From contig NC_092396.1 of the NCBI RefSeq assembly GCF_030028105.1, positions 14,033,820 to 14,097,819 of the forward strand: 64,000 nucleotides of DNA, written 5' to 3'. The notes below the pieces were generated by a model. The model ran no database searches. It was given only the letters and a program-made list of their open reading frames with translations, and was not told where the DNA came from. The position numbers were made by a program, and so were the translations under genes. The DNA is from Mobula birostris. Its lineage: Eukaryota. Each line of letters begins with the position of its first letter. Within the stretch, counting starts at the first letter, position 1. Below, piece by piece: positions 15,470 through 61,024 of the stretch.

Positions 15470-16015
15470 TCAATAAATTTATTGTCAAAGTACATAAGTG
15501 TCATTATATACAACCCTGAGATTCATTTTCCTGTGGGCATACTCAATAAATTTAATAACCTTAACAGAATAAATGAAAGACTGTACCTACTATGTATTTA
15601 ACCAGTGTGCAGAAGACTACAAACTGTGCAAGCACAAAAAGGAGATAATAATAATTAAATAAGCAATAAGTATTGAGAATATGAGATGGATTCCTTGAAA
15701 GTGAGTCTATAGGTTGTGAGAACATTTCAGTGATGGGCGAGTGAAGTTGAGTGAATTTATACCCTGTGGTTTAAGAACCTGGTGGTTGAAGGGTAATAAC
15801 TATTCCTGAACCTGGTGGTGCTGAGGTCCCTGTACCTTCATCCTAGTGGCAGCAGTGAGAAGAGAGCATAACCTAGGTGGTGGGGATCCATGACAATGGA
15901 TGCTGCTTTCCTGTGACAAAGCTCCAGGTAGGTGTGCTCAGTAATGGGGAGGGCTTTACCCATGATGGACTGGGCCGTATCCAGTACTTTTTGTAGAATT
16001 TTCCATTCAAGGGCT
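15470..16015 (-). mobile_element. Rex1-like LINE 3' end
   Basis: Reverse complement of the 54380-54815 region (TTCCTGAACCTGGTGGTG, GGATGCTGCTTTCCTGTGAC). Confidence 0.8.
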
Positions 16016-17452
16016 TAATCAACTTTGCCTCCAACTTTCACCCTACCCTCAAATTTACTTGGTCCATTTCAGACACCTCCCTCCCCTTTCTCACTCTTTC
16101 TGTCTGTATCTCTGGAGACAGCTTATCCACTGATACCTTTTATAAATCCACTGATTCTCACAGCTACCTGGACTATACCTCTTCCTACCCTGCTACTTGT
16201 AAAAATGTCATGCTCTTTTCTCAATTCCTCTGTCTCTGCTGCATCTGCTCTCAGGATGAGGCTTTTCATTCCAGAACTAAGGAGATGTCCTCATTCTTCC
16301 AAGACAGTGGCTTCCCTTCCTCCACCATCAACGCTGCCCTCAACCAAATCTCTTGTATTTCGCGAAAGTCTGCCCTCACCCAATCCTCCCGCCACCCCAC
16401 CAGAGATAGGATTCCTCTTGTCCTCACCTACCACCCCACCAGCCTCCGCATCCAGCACATAATTCTCTGTAATTTCCATCATCTACAACGGGATCCCACC
16501 ACCAGGCACCTTTCCCTCTTCCCTCTTCCCCCGCCCCCCCACTTTCTGCTTTCCACAGGGATCGCTCCCTATGCGACTCCCTTGTCCACTGGTCCCTCCC
16601 CACTGATATCCTTCCTGGCACTTATCCTTGCAAGTGGAATAAGTGCTAACCTGCCCCTACACCACTCCTTTCACTACCACTCAGGGCCCCAAACAGTCCT
16701 TCCAGGTGAGATGACATTTCACCCGTGAGTCTGTTGGGGTCATCTACTGTATCCGGTGCTCCTGGTGTGATCTCTTGTGTATCGGTGAGATCCAGTGTAA
16801 TCTGGGAGACTGCTTCATGGAGCACCTGCACACTGTCTGCCGGAAAAAACTGGATCTCCCAGTGGCCACCCATTTTAATTCTACTTCCCATTCTCATTTT
16901 GACCAGTCAGTTCACAACCTCCTCTACTGCCATGATGAGGCCACACTCACATTGGAGGAGCAACACCTTATAATCCAAATGGGTAGTCTCCAGCCTGATG
17001 GCATGAACATCGATTTCTTGAATTTCTGATAAAGCCCCCCCTTTCCAACTTCATTCCTCATTCCTATTTCCCTCTCTCACCTTATCTCCTTACCTGCCTA
17101 TCACCTCTCTATGGTGCTCCTCCCCCTTCCCTTTCTTCCATGGTTTTCTGTCATCTCCTATCAGATTCCTCCTTCTCCAGCTCTTTATCTCTTGAACTAA
17201 TTGACTTCCAAGCTCTTTACTTCACCTCTCCCCCTCTCTCAGTTTCACCTATCACCTACTACTTTGTATTTCTTCCTCTGCTCCCCCCTCCATCTTCTTA
17301 CTTGACTTCACTTCACTTCCCCCCGTCCTGATTAAGTGTCTTGGTCCAAAACGTCGACTGTTTACTCTTTCCATAGATGCTACCCGACCTGCTGAGTTCC
17401 TCCAACATTTTATGTGTTGCTTGGATCTCCAGCATCTGTAGATTTTGTTTGT
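16016..17452 (+). mobile_element. Penelope-like element, 5'-truncated: RT thumb, GIY-YIG endonuclease and terminal repeat
   Basis: SQFL...ICSQDEAFH...GFP...RIPLVLTYHP; VIYCIRCS.CDLLCIGEIQCNLGDCFMEH (GIY-YIG); LPVATHFN; EEQHLI..MGSLQPDGMNIDF; degenerate HHR ~17324-17359. Confidence 0.9.
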
Positions 17453-19697
17453 GATTAAGCTATTCCATATCCTTTCATAGTTGGAGTCTGCCAAGCAGTA
17501 TAAATTGAGACTAAACTGGCGGCTAAAAGCAGGTTTGAAGGTTTATTCATGAAGATTATTATGTGTAGAAGTGTCATAAAAGCTCAATATTTATAACATC
17601 TCAGTAAACACTGACAGGTTCCTGTGCTGTAACTCAATGATGGGTTCATTTGTACAATACAATTCTCTCATCCCAGGTTGTCTTTCTACTAACATACACC
17701 AACTGGAGTTTGTGTTCGTAAGTCAACAGATCCATGAAAAATATGAAACTCTTAAGATGGCATTTTTGCCAATGGGGAACCTGATACCTTCTGGGATCCC
17801 TTTGGATCTCTGACTGGAGCCATGCACCAGATATCAGTGTTAACAGCAATCTGGTGCATTCAGTCTACAAAGAAATTCTTTGATAGAGTGTTCTATCCAG
17901 TGGCTTTAGTGAGAGGAGCCTCGTATCTTGTGAATTGAGTTGTAGAACAAAGAATAAACTGTTATACTCATATTATTTCCAGCAAATATTAACCAGGAGA
18001 TTTATTACTGTGAACAAATTGTATTGTAAACTTATGTTATGCTTTTAGTCTTAATGTGATTTTTGACCCTGTGGATTATGCTGCTGTAACTTTGACCTGA
18101 TGAAAGCCGGCGCACATTCAGTCAAATCTGGGTTTGTTCATTCATGGCAGTGTTTGATCAAGGTTTGCTTCTGAGAGGCTGGGGCTGTTTGGTAAAAGGA
18201 AATTTGCAATGTTTGAGGTTGATTGAATTCCATTTTATTTTGGTCATTTTGGGAGGGGCTTGCTTATATACTTGAGTTAGTACATCTTGGAGCAAGTTTG
18301 CTTCCCAGTATTGCCACTGTTTCCTATTACTTGACAAATTTTCTATCCATGCTACTCCTGCCCTCTTTATTTTATGGCCTCTCAGTTTCAATTTTGCACT
18401 TTTACAAATATCTTACAAAAAAGCTATATACCATATCAACCTTTTTTCTCTCATCTATTACACTATTAAAACAAAAGTTCTATCAAGTTGGTTTGACATG
18501 ATTTCCCTTCATCAAGTCAGTGGCTTCCAGAAACTCATTAGTATAATTTTGCTCAGTGAGCAAAAGGTGCAAGAATGAGCTCTAAGGAAATTAGAAAACC
18601 CCAAGTTTGGAGTCTTGTTCAGTGCTGGATTAGCTAGAGGGTTGCTGTTGTTATCCACTGTACCCAGAGTCCAAGAAAGTAAAAAAAGATATTCAAAGTG
18701 CTCTATTGAAATTGTGTACTTGTGTAAACACTTTGGGCTAGGACAGAATTGAGATGAAATGTCATCCTACTCATGCTCAACTGAAGAGCTTTTGGCTGAC
18801 ATGATACTTGGCCATGTTTATAACAACACTTCAACAGTACTTAGAGAACAATACGCAAATGAGTCTTAATCTCCTCTGCAGTTTAAAATGAATGAACTCC
18901 GCATGTAAAGTGGAGAATGATGTGACCAGAACCATTGTCTGAAGATATTTCTCCCTAATAAAGAGTGGCCATTATCCGGGGCTAATGGGTATATTACCAA
19001 TGAAACAATCTTTGGAGATTTTCGGGATGAAGATTCTGTATAGGAAATTGTACGTTTATTCCCATGGAAGGAAAAATATTTTTACATCTGTATTTTTGTA
19101 CTCTTTTAGAAATCATTTTTGGTTCTACTATTTTCTCATAAAGACATGTTTGAGAAAATAGAAAATTCAAAAGTAATCTAAGATGGGTCAGAATTAACAT
19201 ACCCTGTTAAAACTACAACAAATAGGATTAGTTCAGATTGGATTCCAGGAGGAATATAAATCTCCAGCATTTTAGGAGAGAAAAAAAATGAGGAAAATGC
19301 TGAAAAAAAGAAATCTGTGCATAATTTATTCCTTTGTAAATAATACTTGTACAGAATTAAAATGTTGAAAGAGCAAACATAGTGGGCTAAGAGATTAGCA
19401 ACTAGACAAATAATTTACAAATAGAATTTGATATTGTTATGCGTGAGATTTCTTCAATTGGTAAACACGATGTGAATTTTAATCATTTCTGATTCAATTA
19501 ATCCCAAGAGGTACCCAAATTTGATGCCTGATTAGTACAAAGGGATGGTACTACGTTAGGACTGCTGACTCACAGATGAGATTCTGCTGTCAGGTCTGTG
19601 TAAATGATCTCAAAAGCTATTTGAAAATGAACAGGAGTATTCTTTCTGGTATCCCTAAATGATAACTGTCTTTCAATCAATATTCTTAAAAACACAT

Positions 19698-20255
19698 TAA
19701 CACAAGAAATTCTGCAGATGCTGGAAATCCAGAGTAACAACACAAAATAATGGAGGAACTCAGCAGGTCAAGTTGCATGGAGGGGAATAAGTGTCGATAT
19801 TTTGGACCTCAACCTCTCATCAGGACTATGGTGACTAACAGGACCTGAGAGAAGAGGTGGGTCAGAGAAATACTGGAAATTAGAGAAATCAATGTTCTTG
19901 CTATTAAGTTGGAGACAACCCAGCCATAATATGAAGTGTTGTTCGTCTGCCCTGAGTGTGGTCTCATTGTGGCAGTAAAGGAGAGCTTGGACCGACACGC
20001 TAGAATGGGAAGTAATAATGGAATTGGTAGCCACTAGAAATCCCATCTTTTGTGAAGGTGCACAATGAAACGGTCCCCCATTCTACCTCAAGTTTCTTCA
20101 TTGTATAGGAGGCTACACCAGAAGCACCAGATATAATAGATGACCCAGAGAGGCTCGCAGGTGAAGTGGTACCTCACCTGGAAGGACTGTTTGGGACCCT
20201 GAAAGGCGGTGAGGGAAGAGGTGCAGGAGCAGGTGAAACACTGACACACATGCAG
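19698..20255 (-). mobile_element. Penelope-like element fragment (GIY-YIG and pLTR)
   Basis: QGPKQSFQVRYHFTCEPLWVIYYIWC..CSLLYNEET; EQHFILWLGCLQLNSKNIDFSNF; degenerate HHR ~19790-19827. Confidence 0.85.
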
Positions 20256-26209: not shown

Positions 26210-27134
26210 ATCTAAAGCTCTTTGCTGTGACCTTGTAGGTTTGAGCCCAGTTTTGGCCCTGAAGACTTAAATATGGTCAACTTCCCAGTGCATTGGTGAC
26301 ATAACGCAGCATTTTCAGAGTAAATACCCCCTTGGATATAATATTAAACTTCATCTGATGTAAAGATTCCATGCCATTATTTAAAGAAGAGCAAGTAAAT
26401 CTTCCAGGGGCGTAATAAACACTTTCTTTAAACCAAAATCATTTTAAAGTTAGCAAAGGTAATTATTTATCTCAGTGTTATTTGTAGGATTCTGCTGACT
26501 GGATGTTAACAATTATTGCCTTCCATCTTATGATATAATGATGCTTCCAAAATATGTTATGGTGCTTTCTAAATGCAGGTCTTTCTTTCTGTTCAAATCA
26601 ATGAAGCACTTAAACACAAATGACACTTGTAGTCCAGCTTCCTGATTCTCCTTCCCTTTGGAAAAACTATCTTTGTCACCTTTGTATCTCTACAGTGGTC
26701 CATGTGGAGAAATGTAGGTTTTCACCTACAACTTAACATTTGGCAGCACCGGCTTCACGATCATCAAATTCCCTCTAATATATTGCAACACCTTTCAGTT
26801 TAATTCCTGCAATTCTTGGAGGTTTCACTTCATGATAGCTACTTTTCTATCCGTATACAAAATGATCCTACAATGGAGTATTTCCAAAAAAGGTCACTTG
26901 CAGAAACCACATGTAAAGAAGAGCTACAAATTAGCAGAGATGACTGTTTAACTCATACTTCCTGAGTGAGATTTAGCTTCTGTTGAAAAACAGTAGGTAT
27001 CTTTTTTAATGTAGGCATGATTTTGGAGTAGATTCATCCAATTACCTGGGTCAGTGATGGTATTTTCCTTCCATATTAGTGCTAAGGAATTTTGTAGTTT
27101 CTGCACTGATTAAAATGAGAGATCTAATTCCTCA

Positions 27135-27311
27135 AACACGAGGAAATCTGCAGATTCTGGAATTTCAAGCAACACACATAAAAGTTGCTGGTGAATGCAA
27201 CAGGCCAGGCAGCATCTCTAGGAAGAGGTCAGTTCTAAAGAAGGGTCGCAGCCTGAATCGTCGACTGTACCTCTTCCTCAAGGTGCTGCCTGGCCTGCTG
27301 TGTTCACCACT
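27135..27311. mobile_element. Penelope-derived fold-back (inverted pLTR pair) with TSD
   Basis: Inverted arms around a degenerate HHR; 13 bp TSD ATCTAATTCCTCA (27122-27134 / 27312-27324). Confidence 0.85.
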
Positions 27312-28787
27312 ATCTAATTCCTCATAATTTATCTTAGTGTCTGTTGATTTGATCAGCTACTATTTATAGACTTCCATTAAGGCCTAACCACATTCCTTTG
27401 CTTCAATCTATTTGTTCTTCCTGAGGGCACTGATCCACGTTGTAGTGCAGTTCTGACAGTACAGATTGCTTTGTGCACTCAATTAATTGACAAGGCCGCT
27501 TTAGTTGGCCTGTATTAATTGATTAGCTGTGACAGGACAGTCATCATACTCATACCCAATTCCGCATTCCCTATTATCCAGACAAATACACTTTCATTAA
27601 GGTTGTTGGGTTGAGATAAGGAGTTAGAGTCCCTGACATGGAGACAAACTAATAGATGATTACTACCACCCCAACTGAGCTCACTAAGAATCAGACCTGT
27701 AGTGTGCGGGACAAAAAACAGTGCTTGCTTCTGAGTGCAAACTAACAATTGAGGAAAAAATCCTTAATGTGGTTAACAGATGAGCTCTTTGTTTTCATAT
27801 GTTTCAGTGATTAAATCATTTTAATTTGTGTATGCTAAAGGAAGAGTGGCGAATACAGCTTTGGTCTTGATGTGCCGTGGATACATTCATCAACTGCATT
27901 TAACACATGTTAAGCTTTAGTTAGTCAGCTGAAAATAATTCAGTATGTTTGCATTATAATTAAATCATTAAGGACAATTGATTTACTTAACATTACCTTT
28001 GTTGAATATGTGGTACTACTGTATACAAGAACATGAGAGTACCAGCAAAGGATAGGAAAATTTGGGATGAAGATATTCTGTTTACGAACCTCCTTGTCAA
28101 TTTGAGCCTATGCATAGCCGAAGTGAGCTACTCAAATGCTTTTTGTTGGCACTGGGACTACCAGGGGGACCTACCAGTAAGAGTATTAGAGAAGGTTGAC
28201 CTTATCACATTGGTATTTGAAGCTCTGTTACCTGCTTTTTTCTGCCAGCTGAGTTAAGCTTAATATGTCAGCAGTTTAATGCACCTCTTGCTATTAGTAC
28301 ATTGATATGTGCCTAATATGAGTACATACCTTATTAAGGCTTTCTGAATTGATATGTGTCATGTTGACATGAATATTATTGTGCCTGTACTGGTGTATAT
28401 GGGAGAACAGTGATTTAGGTTGTTCTCCCACAGTTTCAATCAAACTGTTAATTTCTAAAATGTTAGATTTAAAGGACTTGAAAGATTAGTCAACAATATA
28501 GGAATCGATTGATCCATTAAACAAAGTAAGAGAAACAAAGACTACAGAATTTAACATAAAACTGAACAATTATATGGAGGGATTTTGAATCTTGAACTGA
28601 GTGTAGTATGAATTGTTGCACCAACAATATTTTTTAAACAATTATTAAGCTTCATTTAGGTAGCTGAATACAAATGCAATCAAAATTAATCAAAAACAGT
28701 TCTAGCAATTTATGATTGTGTTTATAAATGTATGTTTCTTTCGGTTGCAGGGTTCTTTACCCATCACTGGACCATCCTATATCCAAG

Positions 28788-28846
28788 ATGGCTCAGTCTT
28801 CCCCAGCAGATGAAGGTCCTACATTTGAACACCTCTGGAGTAGTTT
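28788..28846 (+). CDS. TP73: TAp73 exon 2, coding part (exon 28751-28846); transactivation domain MAQSSPADEGPTFEHLWSS(L)
   Basis: Matches vertebrate p73 N-terminus MAQS...TFEHLWSSL with the FxxLW motif; acceptor TTGCAG|G at 28750/28751; donor TT|GTAAGT at 28847; phase 2. Confidence 0.97.
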
Positions 28847-31642: not shown

Positions 31643-31745
31643 GAGCAACACACATCAAAGTTGCTGGTGAACGCAGCAGGCCAGGCAGCATCTCTAGGAA
31701 GAGGTACAGTCGATGTTTCAGGCCGAGACCCTTCGTCAGGACTGA
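31643..31745 (-). mobile_element. Penelope-like pLTR with a near-intact hammerhead motif on the antisense strand
   Basis: Reverse complement reads CAGTC-CTGACGA-A-GGGT-CTCG-GCCT-GAAA-CA-TC-GACTG. Confidence 0.85.
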
Positions 31746-32145: not shown

Positions 32146-32284
32146 AGAACCAGACAGTACATACTTTGATATCCCACAAACCAACCTCTCCAGCAGCAAT
32201 GAGGCTGTGCCAAACTTGTCACAAAATCGAACTGAAGTTTGCATGGATGTGTTTCAGATGAGGGACATGAATGAATCTGTGATG
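32146..32284 (+). CDS. TP73: TAp73 exon 3: (L)EPDSTYFDIPQTNLSSSNEAVPNLSQNRTEVCMDVFQMRDMNESVM
   Basis: Matches p73 EPDSTYFDLPQ...MDVF...SVM; acceptor TTTCAG|A completes the TT|A Leu codon; donor ATG|GTGAGT at 32285; phase 2 to phase 0. Confidence 0.97.
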
Positions 32285-41771: not shown

Positions 41772-42738
41772 GATACTGTGATATACTGCGTCCAGTGTTC
41801 CCGATGTGGCCTTCTGTATATTGGCGAGACCCGACGCAGACTGGGAGGACAGTCCTTCCAGGTGAGGTGACACCTCACCTGTGAGTTGGCTGGGGTGATG
41901 TACTGCGTCCGGTGCTCCCGATGTAGCTTTCTCCCTGAGCCAATAGACTGGTCCTGGACTTTTTTCCATTTGGCATAGTTTGCATTTTGTTGTTTGATTG
42001 TTTGTGGTTTTTGTATTGCTATATTTATGCTCTATTCTTGGTGCAGCTGTAATGAAACCCAATTTCCCTCGGGATCAATAAAGTATATCTATCTATCTAT
42101 CTATATATTGGTGAGACCCGACACAGACTGGGAGATCGTTTCGCTGAACACCTACGCTCTGTCTGCCAGAGAAAGCAGGATCTCCCAGTGGCCACACATT
42201 TTAATTCCACATCCCATTCCCATTTTGATATGTCTATCCATGGCCTCCTCTACTGTAAAGATGAAGCCACACTCAGGTTGGAGGAATAACACCTTATATT
42301 CCGTCTGGGTAGCCTCCAACCTGATGGCATGAACATTGACTTCTCTAACTTCTGCTAATGGCCCACTTCCCCCTCGTACCCCATCTGTTATTTATTTATA
42401 TACACACATTCTTTTTCTCCCACTGTCCCTCTCACTATACTCCTTGCCCATCCTCTGGGTTTTCCCCCCTCCCCCTTTTCTTTCTCCCTGGGCCTCCTGT
42501 CCCATGATCCTCTCATATCCCTTTTGCCAATCAACTGTCCAGCTCTTGGCTCCATCCCTTCCCCTCCTGTCTTCTCCTATCATTTTGAATCTCCCCCTCC
42601 CCCTCCCACTTTCAAATCTCTTACTAGCTCTTCTTTCAGTTAGTCCTGACGAAGGGTCTCGGCCCGATACGTTGACTGTACCTCTTCCTAGAGATGCTGC
42701 CTGGCCTCCTGTGTTCACCAGCAACTTTGATGTGTGTT
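41772..42738 (+). mobile_element. Penelope-like element (GIY-YIG and pLTR) nested in L1
   Basis: VIYCVQCSRCGLLYIGETRRRLG; 16 bp TSD ACCTC(T/C)ATATTATTGT (41756-41771 / 42739-42754); HHR 42642-42677 with GAAA changed to GATA. Confidence 0.9.
41932..42100 (+). mobile_element. LINE 3' tail with (TATC)n end nested in the PLE
   Basis: AATTTCCCTCGGGATCAATAAAGTA(TATC)n splits the PLE sequence TTTCT|CTATATATTGG. Confidence 0.7.
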
Positions 42739-42888
42739 ACCTCCATATTATTGTCCAGTCTTTGTCAGATATTATTATCCCTCCTTCCTTCTCCCATTAT
42801 GTTTTAATGTATGAAGTTGAATGTGTTTTAAGATTTGACAAACCCTTATACACGCTTGAAATCATTCTACTACCGTTGTCTGAATTAT

Positions 42889-48059: not shown

Positions 48060-48098
48060 ATGCTTTACATAAGTGACGCAGCCCAGCACTGCACCACG
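48060..48098 (+). CDS. TP73: DeltaNp73 alternative first exon (exon 3') coding part, MLYISDAAQHCTT
   Basis: 13 codons matching human DeltaNp73 MLYVGDPARHLAT in length and motif; AAAATG start; donor ACG|GTAGGT at 48099; phase 0, the same as TA exon 3. Confidence 0.95.
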
Positions 48099-52039: not shown

Positions 52040-52596
52040 GACCACTGAGTGTATTTTCATGGTCTTCTGCTGTTGTAGCCCATTCGCTTCAAGGTTTGAC
52101 ATGTTCTGCAATTAGAGGTGCTCTTCTGCAAATCACTGCTGTAATGTTTGGCTGTTTGAGTTAATGTTGCCCTCCTGTCTGCTTGAACCAGTTTGGCCAT
52201 TCTTCTTTGACCTCTCTTATTAACAAGGCGGTTTTGCTCACAGAACTGTTGCTCACTGGATCTTTTTTCTTTCTTTCTATCTCTATCTCTCTCTATCTCT
52301 CTATCTATCTATCTATATATATATATATATATATATATATTCTCTGTAAACTCTGGAGACTGTTGTGCATGAAATTCCCAGGAGATCAGCACTGAGGTAC
52401 TTGAACAAAACCGTGTGGCATGAACAATTATTCCACAAAGTCACTTAGATCACATTTCTTCCCCATTCTGATGTTTGGTCTGAACCTCTTGACCAGGTCT
52501 GCATGCTTTTGTGCACTGAGTTTCTGCAACATGATTGGCTGATTAGTTATTTGCATTAATGAGCAGCTGTACCTAATAAATTGCTAACTGAGTGTA
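52040..52596. mobile_element. Tc1-derived non-autonomous element containing a (TC)/(TATC)/(TA) microsatellite at ~52275-52340
   Basis: Ends GTACCTAATAAATTGCTAACTGAGTG-TA (Tc1-type TIR plus TA); similar ACTGAGTGTA motif near 52045. Confidence 0.65.
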
Positions 52597-52856
52597 CCAT
52601 ATGACCGTCAACATCTGAGGGGGAGCTAGAGGAGATATCTTAATGGTAGATCTCCCTTTCAATTAAGCCTGTCATTACCAAACCTCACAAACTTAATGTT
52701 CAATTCCAATATTATCTGTTCCTCTTTTAGTCTAAGTGCAATGATAAAAACTGAGTAAATATAACTGACTCCTGTGCTTTAACTGGTTTAAAATAAAGTT
52801 ATCCATGACAATACACTAAGCGTTAAGTGAAGGAAGATACTGACTGCTAGAAATGA

Positions 52857-52998
52857 GTCAGTTAGTCCTGACGAAGGGTCTCGGCCTGAAACGTCGACTG
52901 CACCTCTTCCTACAGATGCTGCCTGGCCTGCTGCGTTCGCCAGCAACTTTGATGTGTATTGCTTGAATTTCCAGCATCTGCAGAATTCCTGTTGTTTG
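52857..52998 (+). mobile_element. Penelope-like pLTR (solo)
   Basis: High similarity to 42636-42738 and to 31643-31745. Confidence 0.85.
52864..52899 (+). ncRNA. Minimal type I hammerhead ribozyme motif with intact core; predicted cleavage after C52895
   Basis: AGTC (stem I) CTGACGA A GGGT-CTCG-GCCT (stem II) GAAA CG TC GACT (stem I'); helix III reduced to the palindrome ACGT, as in PLE-associated dimeric HHRs. Confidence 0.75.
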
Positions 52999-54815
52999 CT
53001 TTCAGGAATTCCTTGGGATTCCGGATGATTTTCATCCACTTTGGTTCTATGAGCTTTGAAATGACTTAAGGTCACTGTGTAACCACAGATTCTGCCATAA
53101 TTGGGGAATACGGTATGATGAAGCAAGGGATGCAGTTAGTTTGGGAGATGGTGTCCTCTTTCTTCTGTTTACAGTGGGATCTGTATGTCCCTGATGAATG
53201 TACTCAAGCTGTCAGTGCCTTTCTGAATACTTCATCTCTATTTTGAGTGGTCTTTGGTAGGGGATGGCCACATGCCAATGGGGATTTGCAAGGAGGCTTT
53301 CAAAACATTTTTGACCCAATTTTCTGTTCCTCCAGTAACCTCTGATGCCAGGATTACGAACAACATAACATGCCCATTGTTGCAATATCTGTCCAGTGCT
53401 TTAAGGTACTTGCTATAGATAATCCATAACCTCGAAGCATACAGGCAGTGATCACTGCTGTCCAGTAGACCATAAGCTTTGTGCTATTTATAGCATCCTT
53501 TCCTCAGATATTTAAAAATTGGTGTGCTGAAAGCAACAGTGTATTTCATCATTGGCAATGATTTTTGCTGAGAAATGGAAGGTGCACCACATTTTTCACA
53601 GCCTTGTCTTGAAAACCCCATTCTATCCTATGCTTCAATAGCCTCCAAACATGCAAATGTTGTCTCTGCATGACAGTATGATGACTAATGTTGCAATGGA
53701 GTTGGCACAGGTTGAACAATTGTGCATTTATCTGTAGATTAGCTGGACTCCAGCTTAAAGCTTGATGAAGTACGGCAGGAAAATCCAAGGAAGCTGTGGC
53801 AATGATGCAGTTTTGACACCAATGAGGTTGGGTTATTTGTGGACTTTTGGTTTAGAACGTAATCTCCATCAGCACAATTGCACCTCAAGGCTGTGTGTTT
53901 ACCCCCTGCTCTACTCACTTTGTACTTATGACTGTGAGGCTAAGTAATGCTTCAGTGCCATATTTAAGTTTGCTGATCACTGTTAATCACCAAATCAAAG
54001 TTGGCGGCAAATTGGCATGCAGGAGGGTGATTGAAAGTCTGACTGAGTAGTGCCACAACAACTTTTCACTCAATGTCAGCAACACCAAGGAGATAAGTAA
54101 TGAATTCAGGAGGAGGAAACCGTAGGTTCATGAGTGCCCTCATCAGGGGATCAAAGGTGGAGAGGATCAGCAATTTTAAATGCCTCAGTGTTATCATTTC
54201 AGAGTAGTTTTCCTGGGTCCAGCATGTAAATGTCATTATGAAGAAAGCACAGCAGCGCCTCTACTTCTTTAGAAGTTTGCAAAGATTCAGCATGACATCT
54301 AAAACTTTGACAAACTTCTGTAGATGTGTGGTGGAGAGTATATTGACTGGTTGCACCACGGCCTGGTATGGAAACAACAATGCCCTTGAACAGAAATTCC
54401 TGCAAAAGATAGTTGATATAGCCCAGTGCATCATGGGTAAAGTCCTCCCCAACATTGAGCACTTCTACATGGAGCACTGTCACAGGAAAGCAGCATCCGT
54501 CATCTAGGACCCCCACCACCCAGGCTATGCTCTCTTCTCACTGTTACCATCAAGGAGAAGGTATAGGAGCCTCAGGACCCACACCACCAGATTCAGGAAC
54601 AGTTATTACGACTTTCAAGAACTTTTCATCTCATGTTCTTGATATTTATTTTTTGTTTACTTTTTGTTTTCTTTTGCACTTGCACAGTTCGCTGTCTTTT
54701 GCACATTGGTTGTTCGTCTTGTTGGATGCAGTCTTTAATTGATTCTACTGTATTTCTTGAATTTACTATGTATGCCCGCAAGAAGATAAATCTCAGGGTT
54801 GTATGTGATGACATA

Positions 54816-56446
54816 CAGTGGCACACAAAAGTTTGAGCACCCATGGTCAAAAATCCTGTTACTGTGAATAGTTAAGTGAGTAGAAGATGAACTGATCTCC
54901 AAAAGTCATAAAGTTAAAGATGAAACATTCTTTTCAACATTTTAAGCAAGATTAGTGTATAATTTTTGTTTTGTACAATTTTAGAGTGGGGAGAAAAGGA
55001 AAGGAGTACCATGCAAAAGTTTGAGCACCCCAAGAGATTTGAGCTCTCAAATAACTTCTACCAAGGCCTCAGACCTTAATTAGCTTGTTAGGGCTATGGC
55101 TTGTTCACAGTCATCATTAGGAAAGGCCAACTGATGCAAATTTCAAAGCTTTATAAATCCCCTGACTCCTCAAACCCTATCCCAACAATCAGAAGCCATG
55201 GGCTCCTCTAAGCAGCTGCCTAGCACTCTGAAAATTTAAATAAAGGATGGCCACAAAGCAGAAGAAGGTTATAAGAAGATAGCAAAGCATTTTCAGGTAG
55301 CCGTTTCCTCAGTTCGTAATGTAATTGAGAAATGGCAGTTAACAGGAATGGTGGAGGTCAAGTTGAGGTCTGGAAGACCAAGAAAACTTTCCGAGAGAAC
55401 TGCTGATAGGATTTCGAGAAAGGCAAATCAAAACCCCCGTTTGACTGCAAAAGACCTTCAGGAAGATTTAGCAGATTCTGGAGTGGTGGTGCACTGTTCT
55501 ACCGTGCAGCGACACCTGCACAAATATGACCTTCATGGAAGAGTCATCAGAAGAAAACCTTCCCTGCATCCTCACCACAAAATTCAGCGTCAGACGTTTG
55601 CAAAGGAACATCTAAACAAGCCTTATGCATTTTGGAAACAAGTCTTGTGGGCTGATGAAGTTAAAATAAAACTTTTTGGCCACAATGAGCAAAGGTATGT
55701 TTGGAGAAAAAAGGGTGCAGAATTTCATGAAAAGAACCCCTCTCCAACTGTTAAGCACGGGGGTGGTTCGATCATGCTTTGGGCTTGTGTTGCAGCCAGT
55801 GGCACGGGGAACATTTCAGTGGTAGAGGGAAGAATGAATTGAATTAAATACCAGCAAATTCTGGAAGCAAACATCACACCGTCTGTTTAAAAAAAAAAAG
55901 CCGAAGATGAAAAGAGGATGGCTTCCACAACAAGATCATGAACCTAAACACACCTCAAAATCCACAATGGACTACCTCAAGAGGCGCAAGCTGAAGGTTT
56001 TGCCATGGCCCTCAAAGTTCCCCGACCTAAGTATCATCGAGAATCTGTGGATAGACCTCAAAAGAGCAGTGCATGCAAGACGGCCCAAGGATCTCACAGA
56101 ACTAGAAGCCTTTTGCAAGGAAGAATGGGTGAAAATCCCTGAAACAAGAATTGAAAGACTCTTAGCTGGCTACAGAAAGCATTTACAAGCTGTGATACTT
56201 GCCAAAGGGGTTATTACTAAGTACTGACCATGCAGGATGCCCAAACTTTTGCTTTGGGCCCTTTTTCTTTTTTGTTATTTTGAAACTGTAAAAGATGGAA
56301 ATAAAAATGTAATCTTGCTTAAAATATTAAAGAAATGTGTCATCTTTAACTTTATTCCTTTTGGAAATCAGGTTATCTTTTACTCACTTAGCTATTCACA
56401 GTAACAGAAATTTTGACTGGGGTGCCCAAACTTTTTCATGCCACTG
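54816..56446 (+). mobile_element. Full-length (1631 bp) Tc1 transposon, IR/DR type
   Basis: TIR CAGTGGCA..AAAAGTTTG.GCACCC with TA TSDs (54814-54815, 56447-56448); ~215 bp inverted ends with inner direct repeats (~55011-55030, ~56233-56252). Confidence 0.97.
55198..56227 (+). pseudogene. Tc1 DD34E transposase, inactivated
   Basis: RSGRPRK, WADEVKI, KHGGGSIMLWAC, QQDHEPKH-34 aa-IENLW; stops at 55237 and 55840; frameshift at the poly(A) run ~55889-55899. Confidence 0.95.
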
Positions 56447-56686
56447 TATATGTACATTGATAATAAATTTACTTTAAACTTTGAACTTTAATTTTGACAT
56501 CATTGTAGATATATGCTATACATTTCTGTGGGCACATAAGTTTGGAAAGAATGTTGCACGGCTTCTTGGGGTTGATGTCAACAATTTTTGTGAGATGTAG
56601 AATGACCATACATTGTAGTTAATGTTGCTCCCTGCATTTTTCTTGGAATTTTCTCAATGAAAATCATCATTAGTGTGGCTCTAGGT

Positions 56687-56766
56687 CAAGGGTTCCCAAC
56701 CTGGGATCCACAGACCCCTCAATTAAAGGTAGTATCCGTGGCATAAAAAGGGGTTAGGAGCACCTG
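56687..56766. mobile_element. hAT MITE in the left arm
   Basis: Perfect 8 bp TSD CTCTAGGT on both sides. Confidence 0.85.
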
Positions 56767-57484
56767 CTCTAGGTGAATAGAATCTATGTTGAAATTCAAG
56801 GAGCAATTTTCAGCCCTTGAGGAGGGGATTGAGAAAGACCATGAAGATGACTCTTTGCTTTCACAGACAGCAGTGAACGCGTTCTGTAGGTATCACAATC
56901 AGACTTGTCCCCCTTCTATGAGTGATGAAAATGTCAGGATTCCTGAGGTCACCCTCACACATTTTCATCTTTCCAGATATGCGAGGTGTGTTGTGAATTT
57001 GTTATTAAGGTTTCTCACTTCCACATTTTAGAACTTCAGCAAGAATGCTTGCATCTCTGAGGCCTTTTTGTTTTTCAGTTGTCACAGGATATTTTCAAGC
57101 TCTTGTTGGCTTTGGTTTCTGGTGAGACTGGGCTGGATAATTACTGCAGAATGGAGTCAAGGCCGCTCAGTCAAGATCAGTTTCAACCTGTTCTTTGGGT
57201 TGAGGGGTTTACTGCTGCTTGGTAAAGCTGTTTCTTTTCACTGGAAGAATAGTGGAGTTTCCAGTCTAGAAAATCCTTGTGTTTGTAGTTAATGGATCTC
57301 CCAGTAATTTTCACCAAACCAATCGTAATGTTTTTGGTAGCTTATGTTTGATCAGTCTGCCTCCCTTTTGGTACAAAAGATTTTTTTTCAAGATTGAAAT
57401 TATTTTATGCCGTGCCTGTTGCTTTCAGATTTGATGTTGGTGCATTGTTAAGAAGCTTACTGATTCCATGTTAGAGTGAACTGG

Positions 57485-57625
57485 AGAGTTGCAGAAACAA
57501 ATGAAAGTCCAGAAACGGGGATCAGAAACAAAGACAGAAATGCTAGGAGAACTCAGCCAATGAAATGGCTTCAGTGGAGGGGAAAATGGTGAATATTTCA
57601 GGCCAATAGCCCTTCCTTGGAACTG
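57485..57625 (-). mobile_element. Old Penelope-like pLTR remnant in the spacer of the inverted duplication
   Basis: AAATGCTAGGAGAACTCAGC...ATATTTCAGGCCAATAGCCCTTCC. Confidence 0.55.
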
Positions 57626-57699
57626 CTTAATTGGCTGAATTAGAATCATAGAGTCACAGAACACTAAAATACAAAAACCGTAAAGAGACCTGAGACCAC

Positions 57700-58875
57700 A
57701 GCAAACTGCTATAGAATGCTAGGATTGTTTTGATGAGAATTACTAGGAGATGCAGAAGGTATTAGCCACAAACACAAGGATTTCCTACACTGGAAACTCT
57801 GCTATGCCTCCAGTGAAAAGAAACAACTTTACCAAGCAACAGTAAACCTCTAACCCAAAGAACAGAGATTGGGTTGAAATAATGCTGACACTGTCGCAAA
57901 TTATTTATACCCATGATGGAGGTGATAGTGCCATTTCTGGTCCAAATGTGCAAGGCCCACACTGCTGGGATCTAGGAGCAAATGCACACTTCTTAAGGAC
58001 TGAGAAGCTGCTGGCCCCCTTTGGAAGGGGCACTTCAAAGAATTCCTCAACCATGACTCTGTTGTTGATTGAGCACCCTTGACTCCGTTCCAGTCCAGTC
58101 TCACCGCAAACCAAAACCAACAAGAGTTTGAAAATGTCCTAAAACAACTGAAAATCAATAAGGCCTCAGAGGTATAAGTATTCTTGCTGAAGTTCTAAAA
58201 TGTGGAAGTGAGGAACTTTAACAACAAATTCACAACTCACCTCATGTGTCTGGAAGGATGAGAATGTGCAAGGTCGACTTCAAGAATACTGAAATTTTCT
58301 TCATATTTCTGTCTGTGAAAGCAAAAGTCATCTGCATGGTCTTTCTAAATCCCATCCTCCTTGTGGCTTGAGAATTGTTCTTTGAATTTCAGCAGATTCT
58401 ATTCACCTAGAGCAGGGGGTCTCAATCTTTTTTATGCCAGTGAGCCTTGCCATTAACAGAGGGTTCCATAGACCCCAGGTTGGGAACCTCCAGGTCCCAA
58501 AGGTACACTGTTGATGATTTTCACTGAGACAATTCCAAGACAAATACAGGGAACATCATCAACCATAATGCATGGTCATTCTACATCTCACACAAATCAT
58601 TGATTCCATCAATCCAAAAAGCTCTGCAGCATTCTTTCCAAATTTGTGTGCCCACAGAAATGTATATCATATGTCTGTGATGGTGTGCCAGTCAAGATCT
58701 AAATTAATGGTCCACAAAAAGCTCAACCTCATTGTAGATTGGTGTCAAAGAAAACTATCATTTGCCACTGTTTTCTTGAATCTACTTGTTGCAGTTCACC
58801 AAGCTTTCTGCTGGAATGGAGCTAATCTACAGACAACTGCAAAATTGTTCAGTCTCTGCCAACTCCACTTCAAGT
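57700..58875 (+). mobile_element. Ancient RTE LINE fragment (right arm of the inverted duplication) containing a hAT MITE at ~58413-58491
   Basis: QEFENVLKQLKINKAS...ILAEVLKCG; RQFQDKYREHHQP...SILSKFVCPQKCI (RTE RT domains, decayed). Confidence 0.75.
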
Positions 58876-60052: not shown

Positions 60053-60793
60053 AATCTCACCTTCCTCACCTTACATTAACTGGCCTAGAACCTGAACCTC
60101 CCCCAGAGACAGTGTGGAAGCAAAAGCCCATATAATGACCTGACATCCACAGATGGCAGGACTTGCATAGCATGCCTGATGGTGGCCAATCAATTCATTG
60201 ACTCGAACACTCCAATCCCACCAGTTCTATTTCTCTCTTGGATCCTGGCACTTTATTCTCTCTGTCACAATTTCTCAGTTCCCCTTTGAGTTTTAAAAAA
60301 AAATTTTTAGTAGCCATTAAAACACCAGCACATGTTCAGAACCCTGTCTATGAAGGTAGATTCATCCTGTTTTAGTATCTCACCTGCCATCTTGTCTCAC
60401 ACCCTATCTTGTATTCACCACTCTTGCTTGAAGCAAGTGGAGAGACAAGGTTTGTGTATTGCCGCAGCTGTTAAAACTGGTGCTGTGCCAGCTCAATTTT
60501 ATTATTACAGCAATAAATCATGTTGTCCTGTTTGCATTTACCTGGATAATGGAGATAATTAATTCTGTTGAGAAAGAGTTGGTGACTTTGTGTGACATTT
60601 TCCTTTTGAAAAATCCTGCTTCTGATCTGATTTGATGATCTTCAGCAATGACATTGAAGTAGACATGAAAATAGCCATTTTCACCACGTTTTGCCTGTTT
60701 GCAGTGGCAATAGAGATGAATTGGGATGCTGATGTAGATGCAAAAGCCTGTAAAGAAATTCTAGGACTTGTGCCTGAATAAAATTTACTTAAG

Positions 60794-61024
60794 CAACGCA
60801 GACAAAATGCTGGCGGAACTCAGCAGGCCAGGCGGCATCTACGGAAAAGAGTAAATAGTCGCTGTTTCGTGCCAAGACCCTTCACCAGTGCTGATGAAGG
60901 GTCTTGGCACGAACCGTCCACTATTTACTATTTTCCATAGATGCTGCCTGGCCTGCTGAATTCCTCCGGCATTTTGTGTGTGTTGCTTTAAATTTCCAGC
61001 ACTGCAGATTTTCTCATGTTTAAG
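60794..61024. mobile_element. Penelope-derived fold-back: head-to-head pLTRs with ~98 bp arms
   Basis: Arms 60791-60888 / 60891-60988, each with an HHR-derived motif; 11 bp TSD ATTTACTTAAG (60783-60793 / 61025-61035). Confidence 0.9.

Follow-up and report, generated by a model that had tools for sequence, protein, structure and literature searches.

The hammerhead motif at 52864-52899 of the window (the whole 64-kb stretch of DNA analysed here) lies in what is very probably a recent, 5'-truncated terminal-repeat insertion of a Penelope-like element in intron 3 of TP73, doing little or nothing there. Penelope-type minimal hammerheads are known from many animals, in thousands of copies per genome; the motif described here joins these already known ribozymes and is not a feature of TP73. 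What we add is the date and the boundaries of a recent insertion with an empty orthologous site. A literature search on this hammerhead family in sharks and rays, with most subscription journals and supplements outside its reach, found nothing relevant.

The motif was read element by element, and its parts are as follows.

52864-52899, + strand: minimal type I hammerhead motif (sequence reading and descriptor search)
52864-52867, + strand: 5' arm of helix I, with its partner at 52896-52899; a U52863-G52900 pair may lengthen the helix (sequence, pair probabilities)
52868-52874, + strand: core box CUGACGA, C3 to A9 (sequence)
52875-52887, + strand: unpaired A 52875, followed by a 4-bp helix II with a 4-nt loop and a G-U closing pair (folding)
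52876-52879 with 52884-52887, + strand: the two strands of helix II (sequence)
52888-52895, + strand: core box GAAA (52888-52891), ACGU palindrome (52891-52894) and GUC triplet (52893-52895) (sequence)
52896-52899, + strand: 3' arm of helix I (sequence, pair probabilities)

The stretch contains the core of a minimal hammerhead, namely CUGANGA, GAAA and a UH cleavage site in type I order, and the ACGU palindrome (hammerhead positions 15.1-16.1) replaces helix III. Hammerhead numbering puts the predicted cut between 52895 and 52896. A sequence-only reading had claimed that all type I core elements are present here and that it found no other copy with an intact core and palindrome on the transcribed strand; the first claim is upheld by the reading above together with a descriptor search, and the second holds within the 64-kb window, where both strands were scanned with the full descriptor (core boxes, helix II of at least 3 bp, palindromic helix III, UH, 4-bp helix I). 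That descriptor matched once in the window and in none of 500 dinucleotide shuffles, and a chance origin of the motif was rejected on this result. The core boxes alone matched twice against 0.40 expected (five of 100 shuffles reach two), and at the second match, 31715-31739 on the minus strand, the palindrome is broken. A motif search had been suggested as a check: the descriptor finds the site, and Rfam covariance models gave no match to the motif at gathering score and, at E ≤ 10, five matches of which none is to a hammerhead family. The folding energy of the 36-mer is ordinary (z -0.37 against shuffles).

Partition-function folding favoured the helix II register GGGU/GCCU, with pair probabilities of 0.81-0.95 in four of five context lengths and 0.05 in the remaining one (52850-52915), over the alternative AGG/CCU register, which did not exceed 0.02. 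Short helix I and helix II together showed a similar division (0.65-0.95 in four of the five contexts, about 0.05 in one). With the favoured register the closing pair 10.1-11.1 is G-U rather than the usual G-C, and the nucleotide after A9 (A52875) is unpaired, as in published minimal hammerheads; among 12 aligned family copies this closing pair is G-U in six, G-C in four and unpaired in two. A pair other than G-C at 10.1-11.1 would be expected to lower hammerhead activity; a literature search for its measured effect gave nothing usable. Covariation, also suggested as a check, was scored on the same 12 of 21 family copies, the other nine being more decayed or without the hammerhead part. In the true register 77.8% of positions were paired, compared with 21-40% in slid controls, but the covariation score of 0.276 was reached by 42 of 500 shuffles, and decayed copies give such a score little power. 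Since covariation does not rise above shuffles, support for the stems comes from the known architecture and the slid controls. An apparent double change in helix I of the copy at 60881 sits at the centre of an inverted duplication and was not counted as covariation support.

The claim that the motif derives from a Penelope-like terminal repeat was well founded: it belongs to a family with 21 matches in the window, it has sister copies behind remnants of GIY-YIG open reading frames (ORFs), and it has the optional tail and the truncation of such elements. The copies that bear most directly on it are listed here.

52857-52998, + strand: the whole insertion, a 142-bp, 5'-truncated pLTR copy of a Penelope-like element (empty-site contig; family homology over 52858-52998)
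52961-52998, + strand: optional tail of about 38 nt (family copies stop near 52960 or at 52998)
41778-42741, + strand: a member of the same young subfamily (91% over 103 nt, 42636-42738) still joined to its element (homology and ORF)
16012-17456, + strand: older remnant with reverse transcriptase C-terminus, Cys linker and GIY-YIG (16012-17026), 3' UTR, and a decayed hammerhead with tail (17323-17456) (profile and ORF)
19699-20243, - strand: antisense remnant, an endonuclease piece (20243-19873) followed by a decayed hammerhead with tail (profile and ORF)
31644-31743, - strand: closest paralogue, 95% identical over 100 nt, with core boxes intact and palindrome broken, antisense to TP73 (homology)

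Within the insertion, a few 3' UTR bases are followed by the hammerhead, then by some 65 nt, and then by the tail of about 38 nt. A family profile built from nine window copies gave, at E ≤ 0.01, ten plus-strand and 11 minus-strand matches in the 64 kb; downstream of TP73 exon 2 the numbers are five and six. Nine of the 21 matches stop at model position 137-140 and five at 106-117, in keeping with a tail that is optional, and the public runs described below hold numerous contig junctions at 52999. Each of the three ORF remnants (16012-17026 and 41778-42352 on the plus strand, 20243-19873 on the minus strand) has a hammerhead copy behind it on its own strand, about 290 nt past the ORF end at both plus-strand remnants; in the young subfamily member, the GIY-YIG remnant is followed by a pyrimidine-rich 3' UTR and a hammerhead with a mutated core (42642-42677). 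The placement of the hammerhead in a terminal repeat on the ORF strand is thus seen in the sister copies at 17323, 42639 and 19828, the TP73 copy being truncated before the ORF. The database relatives of the ORF remnants are Mobula and Hypanus proteins. Five of these were scanned: Pfam GIY-YIG was found in four of the five, weakly (E 0.0005-0.002, below the curated cut-off), the Y(I/V)D(D/N) reverse transcriptase motif in four, and the CX2-5CxxC linker in all five. Among ten ORF pieces of the window searched against Pfam, the four from these elements and the two TP73 exons matched no family. Two scans of metagenome contigs for further family copies both gave zero matches.

Within the aligned set, both core boxes are kept in two of 12 copies, the TP73 copy and the antisense copy at 31743, so the TP73 copy is the one in sense orientation; two plus-strand family matches outside the set are badly decayed. 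Neither the profile copies nor the descriptor revealed a second sense copy with an intact catalytic half in the 64-kb window. Three sense copies (17318, 27225 and 42636), 10-36 kb upstream, keep a cleavable triplet and the 3' arm of helix I. Among the other copies, the inverted pair at 27133-27309 has a reversed copy that starts 1 nt past the predicted cut site, and the two copies overlap by six bases at the helix I complementarity, which suggests a fold-back during DNA synthesis.

The surrounding gene is identified by exons in the window.

28751-28846, + strand: TP73 exon carrying the TA start (ATG at 28788), matching Mobula birostris p73
32146-32284, + strand: TP73 TA exon 3, whose translation agrees with Mobula birostris p73 at all of 46 residues (100%)
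48060-48098, + strand: coding part of the putative DeltaN first exon of TP73, proposed from a motif match and a GT donor

The motif sits in the sense orientation in TP73 intron 3 of a devil-ray-like batoid, downstream of TA exon 3 and of the putative DeltaN exon, and exon 4 and all later TP73 exons are absent from the window. Its location in a TP73 intron on the sense strand, as had been claimed, is confirmed by the perfect match of the flanking exon 32146-32284, and because the motif is downstream of both starts it falls within both TA and DeltaN pre-mRNAs, again as claimed, the DeltaN exon being putative. The relevance to TP73 that such a position had seemed to imply is not supported: the insertion is lineage-specific, a close relative lacks it, and the 21 family matches to which it belongs show no strand bias. 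A PDB search with TP73 exon 3 gave no matches. The frame is open upstream of the TA start (28749-28787), and this part matches an N-terminally extended Mobula birostris p73 isoform (P0007, residues 3-15).

The age of the insertion was read from filled and empty sites, by comparing four public runs (X1, X5, X13 and X18, of 24 listed) as contigs over 52360-53500. The contigs of X1 (organism A) are identical to the window over 52551-52885 and 52975-53500; as they match across 52857 and 52998, both insertion junctions are present, with the proviso that the junction contigs enter the element by 29 and 24 letters, under the 31-letter bridging rule, and that X1 is possibly the source sample itself. 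Organism B (run X5) shows an empty orthologous site: in a single contig of 1262 nt (contig 30), 52551-52856 and 52999-53500 are separated by 12 other letters, and the 142 bases 52857-52998 are missing; its flanks carry 11 substitutions and one indel in 808 bases (about 1.4% diverged). The contig of X13 (organism D), with 31 differences in 502 bases (about 6% diverged), extends 55 letters past 52999. For the bin 52789-52827, an empty site with 12 letters predicts a depth of 8.92 x 14/39, which agrees with the 3.2 observed, so that X13 would have the same empty site by arithmetic from depth rather than by a displayed alignment. Parsimony places the gain of the insertion on the branch leading to A, later than the separation from B; a loss in B rather than a gain in A is possible. 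No target-site duplication was visible by eye at the insertion junctions.

Given the empty site in so close a relative, the intact core of the TP73 copy is best explained by youth and not by selection, and the case for a TP73 function is removed. The lack of the insertion in relatives may be compatible with an effect in the carrier species. The pair of filled and empty sites could help in asking whether solo minimal hammerheads in host pre-mRNAs are cut in vivo.

The same runs speak to the abundance of the family. Summed contig depth in X1 is about 6 million over the element against 6-7 on unique flanks, and in X1 and X5 alike the excess is roughly a million-fold, figures that do not translate into copy number; together with one match per 3 kb in the window, this depth indicates a very abundant family. 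In X1 and X5, the majority of loose ends upstream of 52858 resemble the 3' UTR at 42606-42635. Some contigs return from 52898 to 52864, that is, to a second hammerhead start after the first (two in X1, two in X5 and one in X13), in some cases through linkers of 2-3 letters; naturally occurring tandem dimers could be present at such places elsewhere in these genomes, and activity would be likelier there than in the TP73 copy.

From these boundaries a course of insertion can be proposed. The protein of the element would have nicked the target and reverse transcription would have started at the tail end, 52998; copying would then have passed through the uncut hammerhead and halted 6-7 nt past helix I, with about 12 target bases lost or replaced. 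The insertion spans the cut site, as would be the case if an uncut template was copied. For a cut at 52895/52896, the catalytic half of a second RNA copy would have to pair over 4 bp of helix I and 4 bp of the ACGU palindrome, with the element's protein probably acting as a helper. The tandem transcript of an active element would offer an adjacent partner, which the copy in the TP73 intron would be without. The core of this young copy is intact at present and would be expected to decay as it has in the neighbouring copies.

In folding predictions for the monomer, GACG (52870-52873) pairs with CGUC (52892-52895) and buries the core (p 0.91-0.98 at all four lengths); as there is no space for helix III, the monomer would be unable to form the core by itself. 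Two monomers come to -20.0 kcal/mol and the best dimer to -28.3, compared with -9.5 for the double-hammerhead fold, and the probability of helix III was 0.0 in both modelled tandem constructs; nearest-neighbour energies omit core and tertiary contacts, so these values understate the active fold. Because the cores of a double hammerhead are hybrid, a cut at 52895/52896 needs the intact CUGANGA-helix II-GAAA of another copy. The rest of intron 3 and of TP73, beyond the window, may hold an intact sense partner, and partners in trans are conceivable given the abundance of the family. Dimer cleavage is reportedly the subject of a study by Lunse, Weinberg and Breaker.

Comparison with known systems places the copy among the minimal hammerheads that sit in the pLTRs of metazoan Penelope-like elements (Cervera and De la Pena, 2014; PMC4209133). 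According to the available portions of that work, a single minimal hammerhead gives no detectable cleavage and dimers give low cleavage; in the double hammerhead, each triplet is cut by the partner copy's catalytic half, and the palindromes form a helix III common to both. The ray copy resembles these in its type I order, a helix I of 4-5 bp, the unpaired nucleotide after A9, the palindromic 15.2-16.2 positions and missing loop 3, and in its place in a terminal repeat behind an RT/GIY-YIG ORF, with copies mostly solo and truncated. It departs from them at G10.1-C11.1, which is highly conserved there and lies outside the published search descriptor, whereas the ray copy has a 4-bp helix II with G-U. 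The hosts named in the main-text portions of PMC4209133 are bony fishes, coelacanth, Xenopus and reptiles, and no cartilaginous fish.

Within the Penelope-like elements, the CX2-5CxxC linker is given as a mark of Neptune and Nematis in the portions available of PMC8557442, and the ray family shares with these endonuclease-bearing (EN+) elements the C-terminal GIY-YIG, this linker, the hammerhead in the pLTR, 5' truncation, inverted adjacent copies and an optional tail of 30-40 bp. The ray ORF is known from its C-terminal part alone, and the likeness is one of features rather than of phylogeny. The Poseidon element PAc of Anolis carolinensis (available portions of PMC11167929) is alike in that its hammerhead has no stems other than I and II, its 3' ends past the cut site are fixed at two places, and its insertions run through the uncut hammerhead; it differs in belonging to the Penelope/Poseidon clade without the Cys linker, and in that its activity was measured whereas the ray copy is read from sequence. 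Its hammerhead is described there as cleaving only with the element protein, with uncut RNA as the main template for insertion and no RNA-seq ends at the cut site.

Animal non-LTR retrozymes (10.64898/2026.07.22.740005, as far as available) are non-coding, derive from Penelope-like elements, carry type I hammerheads and commonly occur as solo monomers, much as here, and were reported in the one chondrichthyan sampled. Their definition, however, calls for two or more hammerhead-bearing units in tandem, whereas the TP73 copy is solo. No tandem repeat was found at this copy, and a retrozyme identity was rejected on that ground. Taken from its sequence, its predicted folding and its published relatives, the TP73 copy is likely inert, and those relatives would agree with inertness in being inactive as monomers, weak as dimers, or protein-assisted.

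Against this, one can suppose that the copy, a passenger by origin, is nevertheless cut or cuts measurably in vivo, whether through pairing in trans, with the help of element protein, or by its catalytic half acting on other sense copies in the TA pre-mRNA, in which case intron 3 would be nicked and TP73 output slightly lowered in the carrier species. We regard this as unlikely. The catalytic and substrate halves of the copy are both intact, and the three sense copies at 17318, 27225 and 42636 offer a cleavable triplet with the 3' arm of helix I, but they lie 10-36 kb off, with binding limited to 4 plus 2-4 bp; folding predicts a buried core, with no helix III in either tandem; and the G-U closing pair differs from the G10.1-C11.1 conserved in PMC4209133 (available portions). 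The anole element cuts both ways, since it gives a precedent for protein-assisted cleavage and yet, in the portions available of PMC11167929, its RNA-seq lacked ends at the cut site. Family-like contigs do occur in X18, a run guessed to be RNA, where there was no cover on unique flanks and there were no pile-ups of ends, contigs being unable to show ends or levels. In the same contig data, the depth of the X18 hammerhead bin is 0.47 of that of the next bin, compared with 0.95-1.02 in the three other runs, and it climbs gradually over 52901-52939 without a step at 52896. Put more broadly, young solo hammerheads in the host introns of rays might be cut in trans or with protein assistance, every fresh insertion in sense orientation giving a host pre-mRNA one more place of cleavage, and the TP73 insertion would lower or reshape p73 output in one lineage only; this we consider very unlikely.

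The two remaining accounts look to the host gene itself. Domestication by TP73, with the motif regulating either splicing or the TA/DeltaN balance, would have a precedent in the intronic hammerheads of RECK, CTCL and DTNB in amniotes, likewise type I and within host genes (PMC6155905, portions available), and the motif is sense, intact and downstream of both promoters. Those amniote ribozymes are conserved across lineages, whereas the ray copy is minimal, lacking helix III, and a relative about 1.4% diverged has no copy at the orthologous site; an antisense paralogue, 95% identical, has the same core sequence, and the presence of the motif in both isoform pre-mRNAs means that position cannot discriminate TA from DeltaN. 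Domestication is accordingly extremely unlikely and was rejected on the empty orthologous site in X5. An effect on the host through splicing signals stands only a very slim chance: on this account, a cryptic 3' splice site formed by a run of pyrimidines with CAG (52903-52915) would lead to exonisation of the tail. An acceptor-like pyrimidine tract ending in AG does lie 3' of the hammerhead here and in most other copies, and the hammerhead core box resembles the branch-point consensus; the tract, however, is short (nine pyrimidines). Introns near the hammerhead are described for Penelope elements in the available portions of PMC4209133. At 52903-52916 and in sister copies, the AG-ended tract is followed by an ATG and looks like a 3' splice site of the element itself.

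Several other repeats share intron 3 with the preferred passenger insertion. Another high-copy repeat lies at 52436-52590, 270 bases upstream of the insertion, with a summed depth in X1 of up to 840,000. A Tc1/mariner-type transposon occupies about 54846-56417, its inverted arms 87% complementary and its ORF pieces (55240-55842 and 55838-56227) matching Pfam HTH_Tnp_Tc3_2 and DDE_3, and nested inverted repeats at 56578-58603 form a foldback of about 2 kb (arms 82-86% complementary) that is probably a non-autonomous DNA element. Lastly, an inverted pair of the hammerhead family itself, at 60791-61022, consists of near-perfect hammerhead-plus-tail arms, 2 nt apart and each starting at the first base of the core box, which as sense RNA would make a hairpin of about 98 bp in TP73 intron 3.
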